Virus record (IMG/VR): IMGVR_UViG_2850808358_000003
Origin: a virus
Taxonomy: Duplodnaviria; Heunggongvirae; Uroviricota; Caudoviricetes
Direction: 5' to 3' (one strand)
DNA: 27,982 nt
The position numbers and the translations under genes were made by a program. How positions within the stretch are numbered: the stretch's first letter is position 1; each line of letters opens with the position of its first letter. The notes beneath the pieces are model-generated. The model was given only the letters and a program-made list of their open reading frames with translations. It was not told where the DNA came from and searched no databases. Below, piece after piece: positions 1-24,809 of the stretch.

Positions 1-288
1 ATGTCAACCGGATTACGTTTCACACTGGAAGTGGACGGCCTGCCACCGGATGCTTTTGCGGTGGTTTCCTTTCATCTCACCCAGTCACTCTCTTCACTTT
101 TTTCCCTCGACCTTTCTCTGGTCAGTCAGCAGTTTCTTTCCCTTGAATTTGCGCAGGTGCTGGACAAAATGGCCTACCTGACGGTATGGCAGGGCGATGA
201 CGTACAGCGGCGGGTGAAAGGTGTGGTGACCTGGTTTGAACTGGGGGAGAACGACAAAAACCAGATACTGTACAGCATGATGAGGTGT
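1..288 (+). pseudogene. vgrG: vgrG-like (T6SS spike / Rhs-associated Vgr) N-terminal fragment, 3' end removed by IS insertion
   Basis: ORF 1..327 translation MSTGLRFTLEVDGLPPDAFAVVSF... matches recalled VgrG N-termini up to ...NQILYSM; the last ~13 codons lie inside the IS inverted repeat starting at 289. Confidence 0.55.
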
Positions 289-323
289 ACTGGCAATAGC
301 GGACACTACCATTTGTTCTTTTT

Positions 324-1142
324 TTAAGCAGCCATCTGATGATATTTTTCCCTGAAGGCTGCCGGGGAGATATTCCCCAGACGAGAGTGACGACGCTGAC
401 GATTGTAGAAAATCTCAATGTATTCCCGTATTACTGAGATGGCTTCATCCCGGTTATTAAAACGATAGTGGCTCAGGCTCTCATTTTTCAGCGTTCCCCA
501 GAAGCTTTCCATCGGAGCGTTGTCGTAACAGTTACCTTTACGCGACATTGATGTTTTCAGACCAAACTGCTCCTGTATGACCCGGTAATCGTATGCGCAG
601 TACTGTGAACCTCGATCAGAGTGGTGGATTAGCCCGGCAGGTGGGCGCTGGCTCCTGAGCGCCATAAACAGGGCTTTACCTGTCAGCTCTTTTGTCATGC
701 GCTCTCCCATGGCGTAGCCGACAATTTCGCACGTATAAACATCTTTGATGCCAGCGAGGTACAACCATCCCTCCTGTGTGGCAACATACGTCAGGTCCGC
801 CACCCAGACCTGATTTGGTGCTGTAGGAGCGAACGTCTGGTTCAGCAGATTTGGCGCAACTGGCAGATTGTGGTTCGGGTTCGTAGTCGCTCTGAACTTG
901 CGTTTCTGCTTACAGCGTAGCCTTAGCTCCTTACGAAGACGTGCCAGTCGGTCACGACCAACGATGATGCCATTCTCTGCCAGCTCCGTCTGGAGCCGCC
1001 GGGTTCCATATGTTTCGCGAGTGCGGATATGTGCCACCTTAATCTCCAGTTTTAGCCGCTCATCACTTTGTTTTCTGTCTGAGGGTTCATGCTGTACCCG
1101 GTTGTAATAACCGCTCCTGGATACACCAAATACCTGACACAT
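324..1142 (-). CDS. IS3-family transposase OrfB (DDE integrase domain); normally made as OrfAB transframe fusion
   Basis: 272-aa ORF with ...HHSDRGSQY...CYDNAPMESFW... DDE-type motifs; the -1 frame from the OrfA A-run reads into this frame. Confidence 0.9.
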   Translation of the reverse strand: MCQVFGVSRSGYYNRVQHEPSDRKQSDERLKLEIKVAHIRTRETYGTRRLQTELAENGIIVGRDRLARLRKELRLRCKQKRKFRATTNPNHNLPVAPNLLNQTFAPTAPNQVWVADLTYVATQEGWLYLAGIKDVYTCEIVGYAMGERMTKELTGKALFMALRSQRPPAGLIHHSDRGSQYCAYDYRVIQEQFGLKTSMSRKGNCYDNAPMESFWGTLKNESLSHYRFNNRDEAISVIREYIEIFYNRQRRHSRLGNISPAAFREKYHQMAA

Positions 1143-1177
1143 CGCTTCAATGGGAAATTGTTGTCGCCATTGTTCGA

Positions 1178-1480
1178 TTAACGCGTATTTTTCAGCGACT
1201 CCTGTGCAAAATACGCTGTTGCTTTTTTTAATATATCTCGCTCAAGGCGAGCTTCATTTAACGCCTTACGCAGTTGCAGAATTTCAGATTCCAGTTCAGC
1301 CACCGTGCGGGAACCAGGAGTACCGAGCCCTTTTCTGGCGGCGGTAACCCATTGTCCTAAAGTGCCTTCAGGAAGGGATAATCGGGAAGCGCCTTCACTG
1401 ATCGAAAGTTGATTTTCAAGAACCGTTCTGACAGCTTCGGCTTTGAACTCTTTAGAGTAACGTTGGGTTTTTCTGCTCAT
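1178..1480 (-). CDS. IS3-family transposase OrfA (HTH), 100 aa
   Basis: Translation MSRKTQRYSKEFKAEAVRTV... as recalled for IS600 OrfA; A7G slippery run at 1222..1229 (T7 on plus strand) typical of IS3-family -1 frameshifting. Confidence 0.9.
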   Translation of the reverse strand: MSRKTQRYSKEFKAEAVRTVLENQLSISEGASRLSLPEGTLGQWVTAARKGLGTPGSRTVAELESEILQLRKALNEARLERDILKKATAYFAQESLKNTR

Positions 1481-1545
1481 TATTAGCTCCTTCTGATGCC
1501 ATTCTATTTCAGGAAGGAGTGTCCGTTAAACTCAGGCTACCTCAT

Positions 1546-1899
1546 CTACCCCAGATGAGTAATCCGAAGTTCATCCATACCACAGGTCCTGGCTATTCTG
1601 TTGTACTCCTGAACAAGAGCAAATAATTCTGAATTAGCAACCATGAACTCATCGCAAACCCTCTGTATAGCATCACTATTCAGAATAATAACGTCTCTTC
1701 CCGAAAGACGATCAGGAGTACAGAACAAAACTGTCAAACGGCTGAAGGCCTTTGCTCGTGCTGCATTGACTATATCAATACGCTGCCTAAGGATGAAACA
1801 CCCCGACGCCTCATCAATATTCACTCTACCCGCACCATATGAATGATAAATATTTAATGCTGAAAAAACCATTAGACCGTATAACAAATACTCAATCAA
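1546..1899 (-). CDS. hypothetical protein, 117 aa, AT-rich moron-position ORF downstream of phage tRNAs
   Basis: Intact ORF in AT-rich DNA where random ORFs are rare; co-directional with Q and tRNAs; stop codon 2 nt from IS end; no family recognised. Confidence 0.4.
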   Translation of the reverse strand: MIEYLLYGLMVFSALNIYHSYGAGRVNIDEASGCFILRQRIDIVNAARAKAFSRLTVLFCTPDRLSGRDVIILNSDAIQRVCDEFMVANSELFALVQEYNRIARTCGMDELRITHLG

Positions 1900-2009
1900 T
1901 ACTTAACAGAACTTTTATTTTTGACAAACATATAATATTTTCAACAATATCCTGAGCCAAGTATATTTCAGTATAAGGCTCTGCCGGAAGGAATCTGGAA
2001 GAATGAATA

Positions 2010-2086
2010 TGGCGCGCTGTACTGGATTCGAACCAGTGACCGATTGCTTAGAAGGCAATTGCTCTGTCCGGCTGAGCTAACAACGC
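2010..2086 (-). tRNA. tRNA-Arg (anticodon UCU), phage-borne
   Basis: Minus-strand 77 nt GCGTTGTTAGCTCAGCCGGACAGAGCAATTGCCTTCTAAGCAATCGGTCACTGGTTCGAATCCAGTACAGCGCGCCA; cloverleaf with 7-bp acceptor, GGTTCGAATCC T-loop, anticodon loop CTTCTAA, encoded CCA. Confidence 0.85.
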
Positions 2087-2186
2087 TGAATACCGATAAT
2101 GGACCGCCATCGGGGACCCGCCCCCGCACCAACAACCCTGTTATCGTGTCGTCTGCTCTTCCTGATAAGCTAATGCCGGTTTGTGA

Positions 2187-2262
2187 TGGTGGCCCTTGCT
2201 GGATTTGAACCAGCGACCTGGCGATTATGAGTCGCTCGCTCTCACCACTGAGCTAAAGGGCC
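2187..2262 (-). tRNA. tRNA with anticodon CAU, tRNA-Ile2 (lysidine)-like, alternatively elongator Met
   Basis: Minus-strand 76 nt GGCCCTTTAGCTCAGTGGTGAGAGCGAGCGACTCATAATCGCCAGGTCGCTGGTTCAAATCCAGCAAGGGCCACCA; close to recalled E. coli ileX; anticodon loop CTCATAA. Confidence 0.8.
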
Positions 2263-2288
2263 GGGAGCAGAATAATAACGGTCCGTAA

Positions 2289-2313
2289 TTAATTTCGCAA
2301 TAAAAAATCCGCT
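2289..2313 (-). terminator. short GC hairpin plus U-tract (tR'-like) downstream of late promoter
   Basis: Minus strand CCCGCCGCTGAGCGGATTTTTTATT; short stem CCGC/GCGG then T6. Confidence 0.35.
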
Positions 2314-2362
2314 CAGCGGCGGGTTGTAGAAACTCTTCTAACGTCAGGCATAAAACGCCCAT

Positions 2363-2390
2363 CGTTATGACGAATTTACCACAGATTCCG
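2363..2390 (-). promoter_or_regulatory. candidate late promoter (pR'-like) immediately downstream of Q-like gene
   Basis: Minus strand TTGATT (2385..2390) - 16 nt - TAAATT (2363..2368); position matches pR' in lambdoid phages. Confidence 0.35.
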
Positions 2391-2416
2391 GAAAAATCAA
2401 CCTTGTTACCTTGTTA
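2391..2416. repeat. three tandem 8-bp direct repeats TTGTTACC / TTGTTACC / TAGTTACC overlapping the Q-like stop codon
   Basis: Plus strand ccTTGTTACCTTGTTACCTAGTTACC directly read. Confidence 0.5.
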
Positions 2417-3235
2417 CCTAGTTACCTTTTTTAACTGCCGCTCAGCCCATGCTTCTTCAATATCAAACCGGGTCACCAGCGCATCATAAAATTTCTTAAC
2501 TGTTTTTTCCCATGACGCGCGTGTTATCTGGTTTGTCACCTCGCATATAGCATTAAATGCCTCCGTTGATGGTAGTCTTTCATAGCCACGACCACCACAA
2601 CGCTGGCAGTCTCTGATAACAGGCATACCACGTTTTACCGACTCTTCACGATGAATGGCGACACCACGCCCACGGCAATCCTTACAGGCGGTGGAAACCT
2701 CACCCTTTCCGCCACACTCCGGACAGGCAACTTTTACCACCTCCCTGACTTTTTTCCATTCTTCCCAGTAAGACGGATACACACCTTTCGTACACTTTGC
2801 CCATACCGGCGGCTTACCATCCGGATACTGGACCTTGTTTGTAAAAACTATGCTTTCAATAAATTTTTCCCCATAGCAACAAGGGCACTGCTTTTTACTC
2901 GCTGCGCTGCGGGCATAATCCTCAAAAGCGTACGAAGCCATAATGCGCATCACTACCGGTTTTATTTCTGCCGGAAGTTTTCTCAACGCCGCCACACGAT
3001 CGCACCGACTGAGTGCATAATCTGCCAGTAATTCTGTTGCCCGCGCCCTGTCATTCATACTGATGCCCATTTTCCCCAGGAACGCAGAAAAACCCATCTC
3101 AGCCCGATTCTGTGTCATGCCCTGCGCGGCCATCACATCAGTGATACTCAGCGCATCTTTTGACGTTGAGGCCGATGCATCGGTCAGGCCAGGGGATTTT
3201 GGGGAGTAGTATTTCGGTAAATCTTCCAGTTTCAT
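2414..3235 (-). CDS. Q-like late antiterminator candidate with four CxxCxGxG zinc-finger repeats (273-aa ORF; true start may be downstream)
   Basis: Position between rusA and the pR'-like promoter/tRNAs; CPCCYGEK, CPECGGKG, CKDCRGRG, CQRCGGRG motifs; family assignment by position, not verified. Confidence 0.5.
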   Translation of the reverse strand: MKLEDLPKYYSPKSPGLTDASASTSKDALSITDVMAAQGMTQNRAEMGFSAFLGKMGISMNDRARATELLADYALSRCDRVAALRKLPAEIKPVVMRIMASYAFEDYARSAASKKQCPCCYGEKFIESIVFTNKVQYPDGKPPVWAKCTKGVYPSYWEEWKKVREVVKVACPECGGKGEVSTACKDCRGRGVAIHREESVKRGMPVIRDCQRCGGRGYERLPSTEAFNAICEVTNQITRASWEKTVKKFYDALVTRFDIEEAWAERQLKKVTR

Positions 3236-3249
3236 TTTTTGACCTGCTC

Positions 3250-3607
3250 TTAATGCATTATGGGGTAAATCTTCACCCCCAGACGTCCACCAGATACTGG
3301 CTGACCACGAACGATATTGATTTCATCAAACTGCTCATCGTCCATTAACACTCCCGCATGCGTCAGCGCATCCAGCGGTGCTTTCAGGATATTGTCGCAG
3401 GTCGCGACGACGCTTATCCGGTGGCTCTGCAATCACCTTTATCGCCAGCCTTCCGGACAGGCTTAATTTCAGCCGCTGCTGGCGAACAATAAGCGCCACA
3501 GCCCGGCGATAACGCTTTCCCTCCTCCGAGATAAAATATGTGCTGCCACGGCGTCGCCAGTAAGTGTTCACCGTCGGCGGGTAAGGTAAAACCAAATCTA
3601 TGAGCAT
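3250..3607 (-). pseudogene. rusA: rusA Holliday-junction resolvase, frameshifted
   Basis: ORF 3335..3607 carries the RusA N-terminal part (...PPDKRRRDL) and ORF 3250..3432 the C-terminal part (DNILKAPLDALTHAGVLMDDEQF...) in another frame; extra C near 3396..3400. Confidence 0.75.
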
Positions 3608-3619
3608 CAGTCACCTCTT

Positions 3620-4669
3620 TTACCCAAGCACGCCAGTTGCAAAGGCGTGATCAAGAAAACGAAAAATTAAATCAACCTGAGAACCATGCTTTTCTTCGAA
3701 CGCCAGAGGATCCGCATGAAGCTCGTTGTGATGCTCCCGACACAGCGGTAGCGTGAAAATATCGTGAGATTTTGTCCCCATTCCGCCCTGACCATGACCA
3801 ATCAGGTGATGGGGATCGTCGGCTGGCTTACCACAACACGCACACGGCTGTGTCTTCACCCAGCGTTTGTATTTCTCGTTAACCCAGCGGCGACGTTTAG
3901 GTCGTTTCATGAAAGATTCCGGAGACTCAGGATCAACGGCAATGCTGACCACCGTCTTTTCCTGTGGTGGGTTCTGTTGCTGGTGGGCGTGAGGCAGCGG
4001 CGCAAGATTTTTTGTGCGCTGTTTCAGTATGCTGGTGGCGGTCTGCTCTCCCGGTACGATGTCGCTTTCACGGTACATTGAGCGGATTTTTTCCGCACGC
4101 AACCCCAGCGAACGACGTAATACCGCTTCCGGTAGCGCGTCCGCCACCTGATTGCGGACCGCCCACCAGGATAATTCAGCCAGAGATAGTTCACGCTCCT
4201 GCGTACCGCTTATTGCGTGACCGATGACGTCAATCATCCATGCTGACAGGTTTTGATGAGCAAGTTGCTCGAGTGATTCGGATGTCTGGTCACGCAGCTG
4301 GTTGTCGCAGTGCCAGCACAACACCATTGCGCCGGTACCATAACGGTGAATGACGGTTTCGCTGTGATGATAATCGCCGTGTGGCCACTGGCAGGATTTA
4401 ATATGGCGCAACAGCCAGTCAGACAATGCACCAGCACCACCAGCAGCACGAATCACCCGTGCGTTACTGAAAAACGGCAGCAATGTTTTGTCTTCCACCA
4501 GCGGCTGGCGAGCGGCAGGAACGACCCCGGACGGCAGATTACGCATGCTTTTCGGTTCCGGCTCCACCAGTAACCGGGTATTGTGGAATACCGGCATGGA
4601 TTCACGACCGGGCTTAAGGACCACCAGCCCGAGTTCCGGAACCAGAACAGGTCGAAGTAATACCCGCAC
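3620..4669 (-). CDS. ydfU: DUF968-family prophage protein (YdfU-like) with C-terminal HNH-like Cys/His motif
   Basis: 349-aa ORF; C-terminus CACCGKPADDPHHLIGHG...LCREHHNELH; GTG start as predicted; frame remains open ~75 nt upstream. Confidence 0.6.
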   Translation of the reverse strand: MRVLLRPVLVPELGLVVLKPGRESMPVFHNTRLLVEPEPKSMRNLPSGVVPAARQPLVEDKTLLPFFSNARVIRAAGGAGALSDWLLRHIKSCQWPHGDYHHSETVIHRYGTGAMVLCWHCDNQLRDQTSESLEQLAHQNLSAWMIDVIGHAISGTQERELSLAELSWWAVRNQVADALPEAVLRRSLGLRAEKIRSMYRESDIVPGEQTATSILKQRTKNLAPLPHAHQQQNPPQEKTVVSIAVDPESPESFMKRPKRRRWVNEKYKRWVKTQPCACCGKPADDPHHLIGHGQGGMGTKSHDIFTLPLCREHHNELHADPLAFEEKHGSQVDLIFRFLDHAFATGVLG

Positions 4670-4670
4670 G

Positions 4671-4949
4671 TTACCTCCAGATCCGTTGCTGGAATGTGCG
4701 GGACGGACGCGGTGGCTGTTCGGAGTAAGGGAGCCTGACGGAGATTATCCAGTGACGGTAGTCGAGGCTAAGGGCTTTTTTAACCTCGCATCCGCGCCTG
4801 CGGTAACACTGAATGAGCCATTCGGCCTGTTCTTCAGTGCATGAGGGATGCTGGTACCAGTCTGACTTAAATGCGTGAGAATACCGCTCGTGCGTGTGGG
4901 CAAGAACGGTCGAATTATCATGATTGTAATATTTTGCGTTGCGTGCCAT
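4671..4949 (-). CDS. hypothetical protein, 92 aa, immediately upstream of ydfU-like gene
   Basis: ORF MARNAKYYNHDNSTVLAHTHERYSH...; may be the 5' part of a frameshifted longer DUF968 gene. Confidence 0.35.
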   Translation of the reverse strand: MARNAKYYNHDNSTVLAHTHERYSHAFKSDWYQHPSCTEEQAEWLIQCYRRRGCEVKKALSLDYRHWIISVRLPYSEQPPRPSRTFQQRIWR

Positions 4950-5015
4950 CGGTTTTCTCCGGTGGCACGGTGTTACTCAGCGGGAGTTCAGCCCCGCGCA
5001 AGATTGTAGATGAGT

Positions 5016-5267
5016 TTATTCTTCTGAAAAAGCAGAAAAGCCAGCTTTTATTCCGATCTCTTTCAATGCCTGTAATGAAGTGACAAACTCACCGTCGCGC
5101 AAGATAAATCCGTCCGTCACTCGGGCATCCACAAAATTAATTAACGCAGCCCCATTTTTTTGCAAACACACAATGCGGTAATGACTAACAATATTTCCAT
5201 TTTCAACGCACACAGCATAGAGGCCATCTTCACAAAAAATTTTACGCAGTTCTTCGATGTTCATCAT
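5016..5267 (-). CDS. rem: Rem-like small prophage protein, 83 aa
   Basis: Translation MMNIEELRKIFCEDGLYAVCVENG... as recalled for K-12 Qin rem; position between hokD and ydfU as in Qin. Confidence 0.7.
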   Translation of the reverse strand: MMNIEELRKIFCEDGLYAVCVENGNIVSHYRIVCLQKNGAALINFVDARVTDGFILRDGEFVTSLQALKEIGIKAGFSAFSEE

Positions 5268-5389
5268 CAGAATCCTTCCAGATAAATAGCACTCCCCTGT
5301 TCGGGGTCCATCCCTCTTATCCCTGCGCGCTACTTAAGTATTTTTGATTCTATTCCGGCACCATCCAGAACTTCAAATGCGTTGAAAAT

Positions 5390-5414
5390 AAAAACAAAAA
5401 CCCGCCGAAGCGGG
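5390..5414 (-). terminator. intrinsic terminator after relB-relE-hokD operon
   Basis: Minus strand CCCGCTTCGGCGGG hairpin (UUCG loop) followed by TTTTTGTTTTT. Confidence 0.6.
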
Positions 5415-5484
5415 TTAAGTGCGGGTGCGTTGAGGATGCCTGCCACATCAGAGGTGGCGAGGGATTTCTCACTCGCCGGGTCTC

Positions 5485-5640
5485 TTACTCCTCAGGTTCG
5501 TAAGCTGTGAAGACAGCGACCTCCGTCTGGCCGGTTCGGATTCGTACCTCGCAGAGGTCTTTCCTCGTTACCAGTGCCGTCACTATGACGGTTAAACAGA
5601 TGACGATCAGGGCGATTAACATCGCCTTTTGCTGCTTCAT
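5485..5640 (-). CDS. hokD: HokD/RelF type I toxin, 51 aa (not in ORF track, below length cutoff)
   Basis: Manual translation of minus strand: MKQQKAMLIALIVICLTVIVTALVTRKDLCEVRIRTGQTEVAVFTAYEPEE*. Confidence 0.85.
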   Translation of the reverse strand: MKQQKAMLIALIVICLTVIVTALVTRKDLCEVRIRTGQTEVAVFTAYEPEE

Positions 5641-5711
5641 AGCCTGCTTCTCCTGTCAACGCAAAGCAGAAGTGTCACCTTCGGTGCGAAACAGAGATGT
5701 CATGCTTTGGT

Positions 5712-5999
5712 TCAGAGAATGCGTTTGACCGCCTCGCTATATACTTCCGAGCGTTCTCTTTTCCCAACAGAAATCACGAAAACGACAACTTTCTCGTCTA
5801 TAACCTGGTATACAAGGCGATAGCCTGAAGACCGGAGCTTAATCTTGTAACAATCAGGCATACCACGGAGCTTGTTTGCTTCAATCCGGGGTGACTCAAG
5901 TACTTCAACCAGCTTCTTTTTCAACTGTTCACGTACCGTCGAGCCCAGCTTTCGCCATTCCTTTAGTGCCCGCTCGTCAAAATCCAGAAAATACGCCAT
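5712..5999 (-). CDS. relE: RelE mRNA-interferase toxin
   Basis: 95-aa translation matches recalled K-12 RelE essentially end to end. Confidence 0.95.
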   Translation of the reverse strand: MAYFLDFDERALKEWRKLGSTVREQLKKKLVEVLESPRIEANKLRGMPDCYKIKLRSSGYRLVYQVIDEKVVVFVISVGKRERSEVYSEAVKRIL

Positions 6000-6238
6000 C
6001 AGAGTTCATCCAGCGTCACACGTACTGGCTTAGGATTACGAAGCCGTTCTTTCACTATCTCCACAAGTTCAGCATCTTCATCACTCAGGAGTGTCTGTTT
6101 GAACGGCAAGCGTTCATTGTCAGCGATATACTCGAGCATGAGACGAAGCGCTTCAGAAGGAGTTACACCCATTTTTTCAAGCGCGGCGTAAGAACGCGCT
6201 TTAAGTTCATCGTCAATACGCAGGTTAATGCTACCCAT
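5999..6238 (-). CDS. relB: RelB antitoxin
   Basis: 79-aa translation MGSINLRIDDELKARSYA... matches recalled RelB; stop overlaps relE start. Confidence 0.95.
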   Translation of the reverse strand: MGSINLRIDDELKARSYAALEKMGVTPSEALRLMLEYIADNERLPFKQTLLSDEDAELVEIVKERLRNPKPVRVTLDEL

Positions 6239-6239
6239 G

Positions 6240-6300
6240 TCTTACACCTCTTGTAATTACAAATGTCATTACAAGTATCGCACTACAACATGCTTAGGGC
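6240..6300 (-). promoter_or_regulatory. relBE promoter/operator region with palindromic TTGTAAT repeats
   Basis: TTGTAATTACAAATGTCATTACAA at 6251..6274, 13 bp upstream of relB start. Confidence 0.5.
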
Positions 6301-6453
6301 AAGTCACGAAGGAAGTCAGAAAGTAGTCGTAAGAACGGTGATCACTGTCCGCTTTGTGCCAGGAGCAGCCATTGCTAAGTCCATCCTGTTGAGGTAGCCT
6401 GAGTTTAACGGACACTCCTTCCTGAAATAGAATGGCATCAGAAGGAGCTAATA

Positions 6454-6756
6454 ATGAGCAGAAAAACCCAACGTTACTCTAAAGAGTTCAAAGCCGAAGC
6501 TGTCAGAACGGTTCCTGAAAATCAACTTTCGATCAGTGAAGGCGCTTCCCGATTATCCCTTCCTGAAGGCACTTTAGGACAATGGGTTACCGCCGCCAGA
6601 AAAGGGCTCGGTACTCCTGGTTCCCGCACGGTGGCTGAACTGGAATCTGAAATTCTGCGACTGCGTAAGGCGTTAAATGAAGCTCGCCTTGAGCGAGATA
6701 TATTAAAAAAAGCAACAGCGTATTTTGCACAGGAGTCGCTGAAAAATACGCGTTAA
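6454..6756 (+). CDS. IS3-family transposase OrfA (copy 2; L28P and Q68R relative to copy 1)
   Basis: Same 100-aa protein as 1178..1480 with two substitutions. Confidence 0.9.
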   Translation: MSRKTQRYSKEFKAEAVRTVPENQLSISEGASRLSLPEGTLGQWVTAARKGLGTPGSRTVAELESEILRLRKALNEARLERDILKKATAYFAQESLKNTR

Positions 6757-6791
6757 TCGAACAATGGCGACAACAATTTCCCATTGAAGCG

Positions 6792-7211
6792 ATGTGTCAG
6801 GTATTTGGTGTATCCAGGAGCGGTTATTACAACCGGGTACAGCATGAACCCTCAGACAGAAAACAAAGTGATGAGCGGCTAAAACTGGAGATTAAGGTGG
6901 CACATATCCGCACTCGCGAAACATATGGAACCCGGCGGCTCCAGACGGAGCTGGCAGAGAATGGCATCATCGTTGGTCGTGACCGACTGGCACGTCTTCG
7001 TAAGGAGCTAAGGCTACGCTGTAAGCAGAAACGCAAGTTCAGAGCGACTACGAACCCGAACCACAATCTGCCAGTTGCGCCAAATCTGCTGAACCAGACG
7101 TTCGCTCCTACAGCACCAAATCAGGTCTGGGTGGCGGACCTGACGTATGTTGCCACACAGGAGGGATGGTTGTACCTCGCTGGCATCAAAGATGTTTATA
7201 CGTGCGAAATT
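6792..7211 (+). pseudogene. IS3-family transposase OrfB, 3'-truncated at codon ~140
   Basis: Identical to copy 1 OrfB through ...GIKDVYTCEI, then diverges at the junction. Confidence 0.85.
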
Positions 7212-24000: not shown

Positions 24001-24234
24001 GCAGGTATGTCTACGGGGTGGTTAGCTAATACCAGTACAGATGGTAATCATAGCCACTCACTGTCCGGCACAGCAGCATCTGCAGGTGCACACGCGCATA
24101 CTGTCGGTATTGGTGCTCATACGCACTCCGTTGCGATTGGTTCACATGGACACACCATCACCGTTAACGCTGCTGGTAACGCGGAAAACACCGTCAAAAA
24201 CATCGCATTTAACTATATTGTGAGGCTTGCATAA
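21067..24234 (+). CDS. stf: side tail fibre protein Stf
   Basis: [26 protein letters not shown]... matches recalled lambda Stf N-terminus; C-terminal His-rich HxH motifs and ...[18 protein letters not shown] end. Confidence 0.9.
21400..22450 (+). repeat. low-complexity Ala/Ser/Thr-rich imperfect tandem repeats inside stf
   Basis: Recurring ...[14 protein letters not shown]... units; region is open in several frames on both strands. Confidence 0.7.
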
Positions 24235-24809
24235 TGGCATTCAGAATGAGTGAACAACCACGGACCATAAAAATTTATAATCTGCTGGCCGGAACTAATG
24301 AATTTATTGGTGAAGGTGATGCATATATTCCGCCTCATACAGGTCTGCCAGCAAACAGTACCGATATTGCACCGCCAGATATTCCGGCTGGCTTCGTGGC
24401 TGTTTTCAACAGTGATGAGTCATCGTGGCATCTCGTTGAAGATCATCGGGGTAAAACAGTTTATGACGTGGCGTCAGGGGACGCGTTATTTATTTCTGAA
24501 CTCGGTCCGTTACCGGAAAATGTTACCTGGTTATCGCCGGAAGGGGAGTTTCAGAAGTGGAACGGCACAGCCTGGGTGAAGGATACGGAAGCAGAAAAAC
24601 TGTTCCGGATCCGGGAGGCGGAAGAAACAAAAAACAACCTGATGCAGGTAGCCAGTGAGCATATTGCGCCGCTTCAGGATGCTGCAGATCTGGAAATTGC
24701 AACGGAGGAAGAAATCTCGTTGCTGGAAGCATGGAAAAAGTATCGGGTATTGCTGAACCGTGTTGATACGTCAACTGCACAGGATATTGAATGGCCAGCA
24801 CTGCCGTAG
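24234..24809 (+). CDS. tfa: tail fibre assembly protein Tfa
   Basis: [37 protein letters not shown]... matches lambda Tfa; start overlaps stf stop. Confidence 0.9.

Follow-up and report, generated by a model that had tools for sequence, protein, structure and literature searches.

The two tRNA genes of the window, by which we mean the whole stretch of 27,982 nt analysed here, are the well-known ileZ and argO rare-codon tRNA genes of lambda-like E. coli phages, Stx phages included. We consider it highly probable (roughly 0.88) that the module to which they belong is the standard ileZ/argN/argO set carried by lambdoid prophages between Q and the late genes, in its common two-tRNA form; the window is assigned to this variant because argN is present in it only as a relic. 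As such the feature is already known and ordinary. ileZ and argO have long been annotated in lambdoid and Stx prophages and are present in most complete E. coli genomes, so that the pair matters little beyond annotation. What can be added to the GenBank annotation is modest, namely the reading of the gap between the two genes as an argN pseudogene and the recognition of a conserved promoter-like element in front of ileZ.

In the window ARAGORN calls two tRNA genes and no more, each of them on the minus strand: argO, a tRNA-Arg(UCU) gene with the anticodon tct, at 2010..2086, and ileZ, a CAU tRNA gene that we assign to the tRNA-Ile2 type, at 2187..2262. The interval between them measures exactly 100 nt (2087..2186). 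A preliminary description of this DNA had claimed a tRNA pair at precisely these positions and on this strand, and had made the claim depend on covariance-model scores. Against the Rfam tRNA model RF00005, which has a gathering score of 29 bits, argO scores 68.0 bits (E-value 4.7e-13) and ileZ 72.5 bits (E-value 2.7e-14), each as a full-length cloverleaf covering model positions 1-71 of 71. The two genes are therefore confirmed as real, far beyond chance. As orthologues of ileZ and argO they lie in the ileZ-argN-argO order downstream of Q, a pR'-like promoter and a tR'-like terminator; the intact argN that belongs between them in the full cluster is absent from the window.

The phage 933W is a further Stx phage with an ileZ-argN-argO cluster. 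In GenBank, ileZ, argN and argO are annotated in AP012540.1 (Stx2a_WGPS8) and AM072972.1 (phage Lahn2), and ileZ and argO in phiP27 (AJ298298.1). Homology with this cluster, which the preliminary description had put forward, is borne out by alignment: the ~300-nt stretch compared with the phage clusters (window 1995..2302) aligns as a whole at 87.5% with Stx2 phages, 91.6% with phiP27 and 98% with mEp460 (LR597641.1). The Stx-phage cluster has the same order, the same spacing and the same position downstream of Q as the module of the window, and the same promoter-like element before ileZ. ileZ is identical to that of Stx2a_WGPS8 at 76/76 positions, and argO to that of the Stx2 phages at 76/77. 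Then again, argN (UCG) is an intact gene in the Stx-phage cluster and a pseudogene in the window, the 144-aa Q of the Stx2 phages is replaced in the window by a Q of a different type (273 aa, PF03589), and the stx genes that follow the tRNAs in Stx phages are not found directly downstream of the tRNA cluster in the window, where instead of stxA/stxB there are 465 nt and then an IS600 element. Both phiP27 and mEp460 show the same two-tRNA form as the window, and in their argN relics the anticodon arm has been replaced in the same way. In phiP27 the relic keeps a TTCGAGT T loop and stx2e lies downstream; in mEp460 the homologue is unannotated, the Q, RusA and DUF968 genes upstream are the same as in the window, and lysis genes follow. 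The window differs from both by an extra acceptor-stem mutation in the relic, by a weakened terminator and by the IS600 element downstream. A full-text literature search on ileZ/argN/argO returned nothing relevant, and the prior knowledge cited here is that of GenBank annotations; among papers on Stx phages, one mentions only "two tRNA-Arg and one tRNA-Met" (PMC7946995), and others do not mention these tRNAs.

But is the CAU tRNA not simply an elongator tRNA-Met? ARAGORN calls it Met, from the CAU anticodon alone, and several GenBank phage records carry that label. Beyond its anticodon, however, the tRNA body is clearly nearer to tRNA-Ile2 than to either tRNA-Met, being identical to K-12 MG1655 ileY at 70/76 positions (92.1%) and to ileX at 68/76 (89.5%) as compared with 69.2% identity to the elongator metT and 62.8% to the initiator metZ. 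E. coli TilS distinguishes tRNA-Ile2 from tRNA-Met by the acceptor pairs 4:69 and 5:68 (PMC11947777). At these positions the window ileZ has C4:G69 and C5:G68, the same as ileX and ileY, whereas metT has U4:A69 and A5:U68. Moreover, near-identical loci are labelled tRNA-Ile by PGAP, whose tRNA calls are made with tRNAscan-SE. A tRNA-Met, to which we give next to no credence, is thus already disfavoured, and an assignment of the window gene to the tRNA-Ile2 type, as implied by the earlier label "Ile2-like", is supported by its sequence. We suggest that CAU tRNAs at such loci be annotated as tRNA-Ile2 and not as tRNA-Met.

The identity of argO is more straightforward. ArgRS identity elements are A20, C35 and a purine at position 73. 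The window argO carries A20 in the D loop (GCCGGACA), C35, the discriminator G73 and the UCU anticodon, which places it among the tRNA-Arg(UCU) genes, and it would be predicted to read AGA (and AGG). The sole change relative to Stx2 phage argO, A69->G, gives a U4.G69 wobble pair, and the window form is also the commonest argO haplotype among the loci that bear the argN relic. K-12 argU, in contrast, agrees with it at only 57/77 positions (74.0%). The acceptor, anticodon and T stems account for 16 of the 20 differences, in line with the earlier claim that the Arg tRNA diverges from argU across its stems, and the anticodon loop, CUUCUAA, is that of argU. The window ileZ departs from ileY and ileX at 6 and 8 positions, respectively, among them the A27.C43 found in all ileZ copies in place of the G27.U43 of the host genes; its anticodon loop too is that of ileX and ileY. 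Identity with the chromosomal genes, which would have spoken against a separate phage copy, was thus not found with K-12 ileX, ileY or argU, even though anticodons, anticodon loops and TilS identity pairs are shared. Unlike these K-12 genes, those of the window sit in a prophage and follow a late promoter that depends on Q. Compared with K-12, the notion that the phage tRNAs form a line of their own, separate from the host genes, therefore holds.

According to the preliminary description the interval between the two genes contains no recognisable third tRNA. With respect to detection this stands, as in 2087..2186 no tRNA match is given by ARAGORN, nor by Rfam even at E<=10 (1900..2420 scanned). 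The weak matches that the Rfam scan of this region did return at that cut-off (Plastid-ycf2, SNORD103, YrlA and SAM_alpha) are below gathering and were rejected as antisense or overlapping echoes of the tRNAs. Yet the interval is not featureless DNA. Judged by its alignment to argN of Stx2a_WGPS8 it is an argN pseudogene, with an 80-nt relic of tRNA-Arg(UCG) at 2100..2179 (minus strand), and we propose to annotate the 100-nt gap in this way. The relic matches argN base for base in two parts, of which the first comprises the 5' acceptor strand with the D arm and the second the T stem together with the 3' acceptor strand and the CCA. In place of the anticodon arm there is an unrelated stretch, longer by 4 nt and lacking a 7-nt anticodon loop, and the T loop consists of the 6 nt GCGGGT, without TTC. 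In the predicted cloverleaf-like fold, the position of the anticodon arm is taken by a stem of 7 bp with a loop of 3 nt, and the relic is hence unable to decode. C4->G at 2176 additionally breaks an acceptor pair, among the sampled copies in the window only. This window-specific variant has no exact match in species-representative genomes, and a looser relic pattern is found in the E. coli representative only, among 185,579 such genomes.

In a survey of 108 IMG/VR contigs with the ileZ 3' end, about 56 have the order ileZ-argN(UCG)-argO and about 27 have ileZ, ~100 nt and argO; 26 loci, the window included, possess the relic sequence described above. A few surveyed contigs contain an independent relic in the form of an 80-nt deletion (L022/L075/L083), and one locus (L092) represents an intermediate in which the anticodon arm is intact and the T-loop lesion is already present. 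It is against this background that one has to consider whether the interval has a function, as a tRNA-like RNA or as a processing scaffold, and is kept under selection. The cloverleaf-like fold with its acceptor and T stems might be taken to suggest so, as might the observation that among relic-bearing loci the interval is about as variable as ileZ (pi 0.011 vs 0.008); however, this class of loci was chosen by the relic's own sequence and low diversity is expected from recent shared ancestry, so that per-segment diversity is confounded here and is not evidence for function. As to the fold, it is about as stable as that of shuffled sequence (z -0.34); MFE folding misses the cloverleaf of argO, ileZ and intact argN and is informative only for the shape of the relic. 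Furthermore, of the five substitutions observed between relics, three break stem pairs and are uncompensated (C4->G of the window, G->A in the 3' acceptor strand, G->C in the new stem). The T loop has a run of 5, 6 or 12 G depending on the copy, and the deletion forms and the intermediate with only the T-loop lesion exist alongside. A selected function of the interval therefore seems very improbable to us, and we prefer to regard it as decayed argN.

Across the surveyed loci, argO and argN have also changed in different ways. In argO, compensatory double changes are found at 7 of 21 pairs, and only 6 of 86 loci have broken pairs. In argN, 0 of 21 pairs show compensatory changes even among the "intact" haplotypes, and frequent variants have two mismatches in their stems as well as altered T loops. 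From this contrast we conclude that ileZ and argO are maintained while argN decays repeatedly; throughout the family, constraint on argN appears to be relaxed. Some argN copies have variant anticodon loops, with TCT for TCG (L038), a Lys-TTT according to ARAGORN (L023/L076) or A37->G (L067), which could be anticodon shifts or further decay. In at least 12 IMG/VR contigs ileZ is followed by tRNA-Lys(TTT), tRNA-Thr(TGT) and tRNA-Gly(TCC) in place of argN and argO, and ileZ would thus seem to head several alternative tRNA cassettes. Among complete E. coli genomes, 3115 of 5426 match the region, 1190 of them with at least 80% of it covered; the best match is at 99.2%, and PGAP annotates tRNA-Ile and tRNA-Arg at the matching loci.

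Upstream of the tRNAs the preliminary description had noted a Q-like gene and a pR'-like promoter, and both were recovered. The gene at 2414..3235 (minus strand) encodes a QuuQ-like Q-type late antiterminator of 273 aa that matches Pfam Antiterm PF03589 in two stretches (E 6.3e-55). The exact protein occurs in 3347 blocks of the public collection, and RusA and DUF968 genes precede it in all eight places listed. The pR'-like late promoter (2361..2400, minus strand), read from the sequence and compared with lambda pR', consists of a -35 TTGATT (2400..2395), a 16-nt spacer, TGg-TAAATT with the -10 at 2378..2373 and a -10-like pause element, AACGAT (2366..2361), followed by GGG. Lambda pR' reads TTGACT-17-TAAATT-tgactc-AACGATGGG, with which the window agrees in the -10, in the 6-nt gap and in AACGATGGG. 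The element is missing from the list produced by a consensus scan because only 8/12 hexamer positions match; its function as a promoter is inferred. The hairpin of a tR'-like intrinsic terminator, obtained by RNA folding, lies ~40 nt beyond the pR' elements at 2302..2323 (minus strand). It has the form CCGC-CGCUGA-GCGG followed by U6 and also aligns to the terminator part of the Trp-leader model. Its stem, GCGGG with 5 bp in relatives, is left with 4 bp in the window by an A at 2308.

Two minor features accompany these elements. Transcription of the pR'-to-tR' interval (2290..2372, minus strand) would give a leader RNA of ~65-75 nt, analogous to lambda 6S RNA; pR' leader transcripts are regulatory sRNAs in Stx phages. 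In addition, three direct GGTAAC repeats (GGTAACtagGTAACaaGGTAACaagg) at 2405..2426 (minus strand) overlap the Q stop codon directly upstream of the pR' -35 and might be a binding element for Q or another regulator.

Directly in front of ileZ, a scan detects a promoter-like element, TTGCGA-17-TATTAT (2272..2300, minus strand; 9/12 matches), with only nine bases, including the GC-rich TCTGCTCCC, between TATTAT and the ileZ 5' end. Hexamers, 17-nt spacing and GC-rich stretch are kept upstream of ileZ in 48 haplotypes from IMG/VR loci with at least five unrelated upstream contexts, while the sequence of the spacer and everything further upstream differ among these haplotypes. A similar layout, TTGCGT...GTTATT, is present upstream of K-12 ileY. 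This conservation points to a putative dedicated tRNA promoter which would act besides Q-dependent read-through, and Q-independent expression of this kind would bear on whether lysogens benefit from prophage tRNAs. One may go further and view the tRNA module as a self-contained unit with its own promoter, of a type known from tRNA and rRNA genes with a GC-rich discriminator, from which ileZ and argO would be expressed constitutively in lysogens, as lysogenic-conversion genes. If true, the two tRNAs would help the host to translate horizontally acquired genes rich in AGA, AGG and AUA, and this would explain why ileZ and argO stay intact even in a dead prophage scrambled by IS elements, whereas argN has decayed repeatedly. 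We regard this extension as speculative and rather doubtful. On the opposite side of the cluster, just downstream of argO, lies the strongest sigma-70-like match of the region, TTGACA-16-AACAAT (10/12; 1921..1948, plus strand), which points antisense into the tRNA genes.

How would the two tRNAs act? In a working phage, Q would let polymerase from pR' pass tR' and the tRNAs would be transcribed, and ileZ and argO would probably be transcribed also from their own promoter just upstream of ileZ. The conserved identity elements lead one to expect that RNase P and 3' exonucleases free the tRNAs from the precursor and that TilS converts C34 of ileZ to lysidine, upon which the tRNA would be charged with Ile and read AUA. 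Charging of argO by ArgRS would allow AGA and AGG to be read. Together, ileZ and argO would raise the supply of scarce tRNAs for genes that use these codons at two to three times the rate of core genes.

The codon use of the window is in keeping with such a role. In its long ORFs (6.7k codons), compared with ORFs obtained by the same procedure from one K-12 region (100-150 kb), AGA and AGG together amount to 8.9 as against 3.6 per 1000 codons (OR 2.5, p 1e-6) and AUA to 6.1 as against 2.9 (OR 2.1, p 8e-4). A UCU argO and an Ile2-type CAU ileZ agree with the earlier proposal of tRNAs for the rare codons AGA and probably AUA, and the enrichment accords with the classical idea that such tRNAs make up for scarce host isoacceptors when phage genes are expressed. 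As evidence for a benefit from codon supply it is a correlation, from a 6.7k-codon sample set against a single 50-kb region of K-12. Moreover, CGG, a codon of the lost argN, is as enriched as AGA/AGG (12.2 versus 4.5 per 1000; OR 2.7, p 1e-9), so demand alone fails to explain which tRNAs stay, and the enrichment leaves unexplained why argN, which would read CGA and CGG, is dispensable. Nor are the late genes to be served adjacent to the tRNAs in the window, where the structural genes are on the other strand beyond IS600.

An anti-defence role of phage tRNAs is known in other systems, and ileZ and argO might likewise be spares for host tRNAs cut by anticodon nucleases, for instance of the colicin D type that acts on tRNA-Arg. 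That argO differs from argU in all three long stems would be compatible with this idea. The anticodon loops, however, are the same as those of the host tRNAs (argU for argO, ileX and ileY for ileZ) and hence show no loop change of the nuclease-evading kind, and the isoacceptors carried are exactly the readers of rare codons that are enriched in the prophage genes. We therefore think it very unlikely that the pair serves as spares, and favour codon supply as the role of the tRNAs in a working phage.

The phage in question, though, is no longer a working one. "Phage-borne", as the preliminary description had it, says too much, the module being part of a defective prophage remnant rearranged by IS600. 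The number of IS600 copies suggests Shigella or an IS-rich E. coli as the source. A copy of this IS3-family element occupies 281..1544 (minus strand; Pfam HTH_Tnp_1 and rve on ORFs 1178..1480 and 324..1142) and is 99% identical to annotated IS600 elements, its left boundary being approximate. It begins 465 nt downstream of argO, at the point where homologous prophages run into late genes, and the 465 nt themselves are sequence common to non-Stx prophages. A 117-aa ORF downstream of argO (1546..1899, minus strand) was dismissed as spurious, as it has no Pfam match and is non-coding in the annotation of relatives. A partial second IS600 at 6390..7211 (plus strand), with HTH_Tnp_1 and a truncated rve in Pfam, has a length of 822 nt and repeats window 723..1544, inverted, at 99.76% identity. 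Directly next to it comes a gene for a lambda-type portal protein that lacks its N-terminal part, the portal match starting at profile position 73. The inverted copies bracket a Q–tRNA segment of 4845 bp (1545..6389), and homology to intact Qin-like prophages is likewise confined to the stretch from window 6389 down to 1544. The arrangement looks like the product of an IS-mediated deletion followed by an inversion, or else like a composite-transposon-like unit.

In relatives the gene order is relB/parE, hokD, rem, DUF968, rusA, Q, tRNAs, DUF3927, TolA-like genes, holin and lysozyme. The rusA gene of the window (3250..3607, minus strand) has a 1-nt insertion, CCTGCGACAA for the CCTG-GACAA of an E. 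coli prophage copy, which splits the frame and makes it a probable pseudogene. Lysis and terminase genes are absent from the window, and its structural genes occupy the plus strand beyond IS600 up to the window end. Bracketed by inverted IS600 copies, with a frameshifted rusA and with no lysis or terminase genes, the module is stranded, and any role that it has at present would be for the host, or there is none.

Have ileZ and argO, then, become functionless passengers, which persist only because the remnant died recently and contribute nothing in this genome? The insertion in rusA, the tR' stem that is one pair short, the extra mutation that only the window has in pseudo-argN, and the IS600 bracketing together with the missing lysis and terminase genes would all be consistent with this. 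Against it, ileZ is unchanged with respect to Stx2a_WGPS8, the single change in argO still allows pairing (U4.G69), and the promoter-like element is intact; moreover, the compensatory substitutions in argO across loci argue for long-term selection on the family. We consider passengers a real possibility, albeit on balance an unlikely one.

The early region of the bracketed segment contains toxin-antitoxin genes at 5485..6238 (minus strand), which encode a hokD-like protein (HOK_GEF, E 1e-23), a ParE-family toxin of 95 aa and a RelB of 79 aa; hokD-like, ParE-family and RelB genes are likewise found in the Qin prophage. To the left of IS600, on the strand opposite to the tRNA module, an ORF of 108 aa with an ATG start (1..327, plus strand) at the edge of the window corresponds to the beginning of gpD, the baseplate hub of P2 type (E 2e-7 over positions 2-66 of 305 in Pfam Phage_GPD), and probably stems from a different prophage, juxtaposed by the IS element. 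Finally, Rfam IS009 has a full-length match at 24577..24775 (plus strand; 220.9 bits, gathering 117) inside the tail-fibre-assembly gene at 24234..24809.
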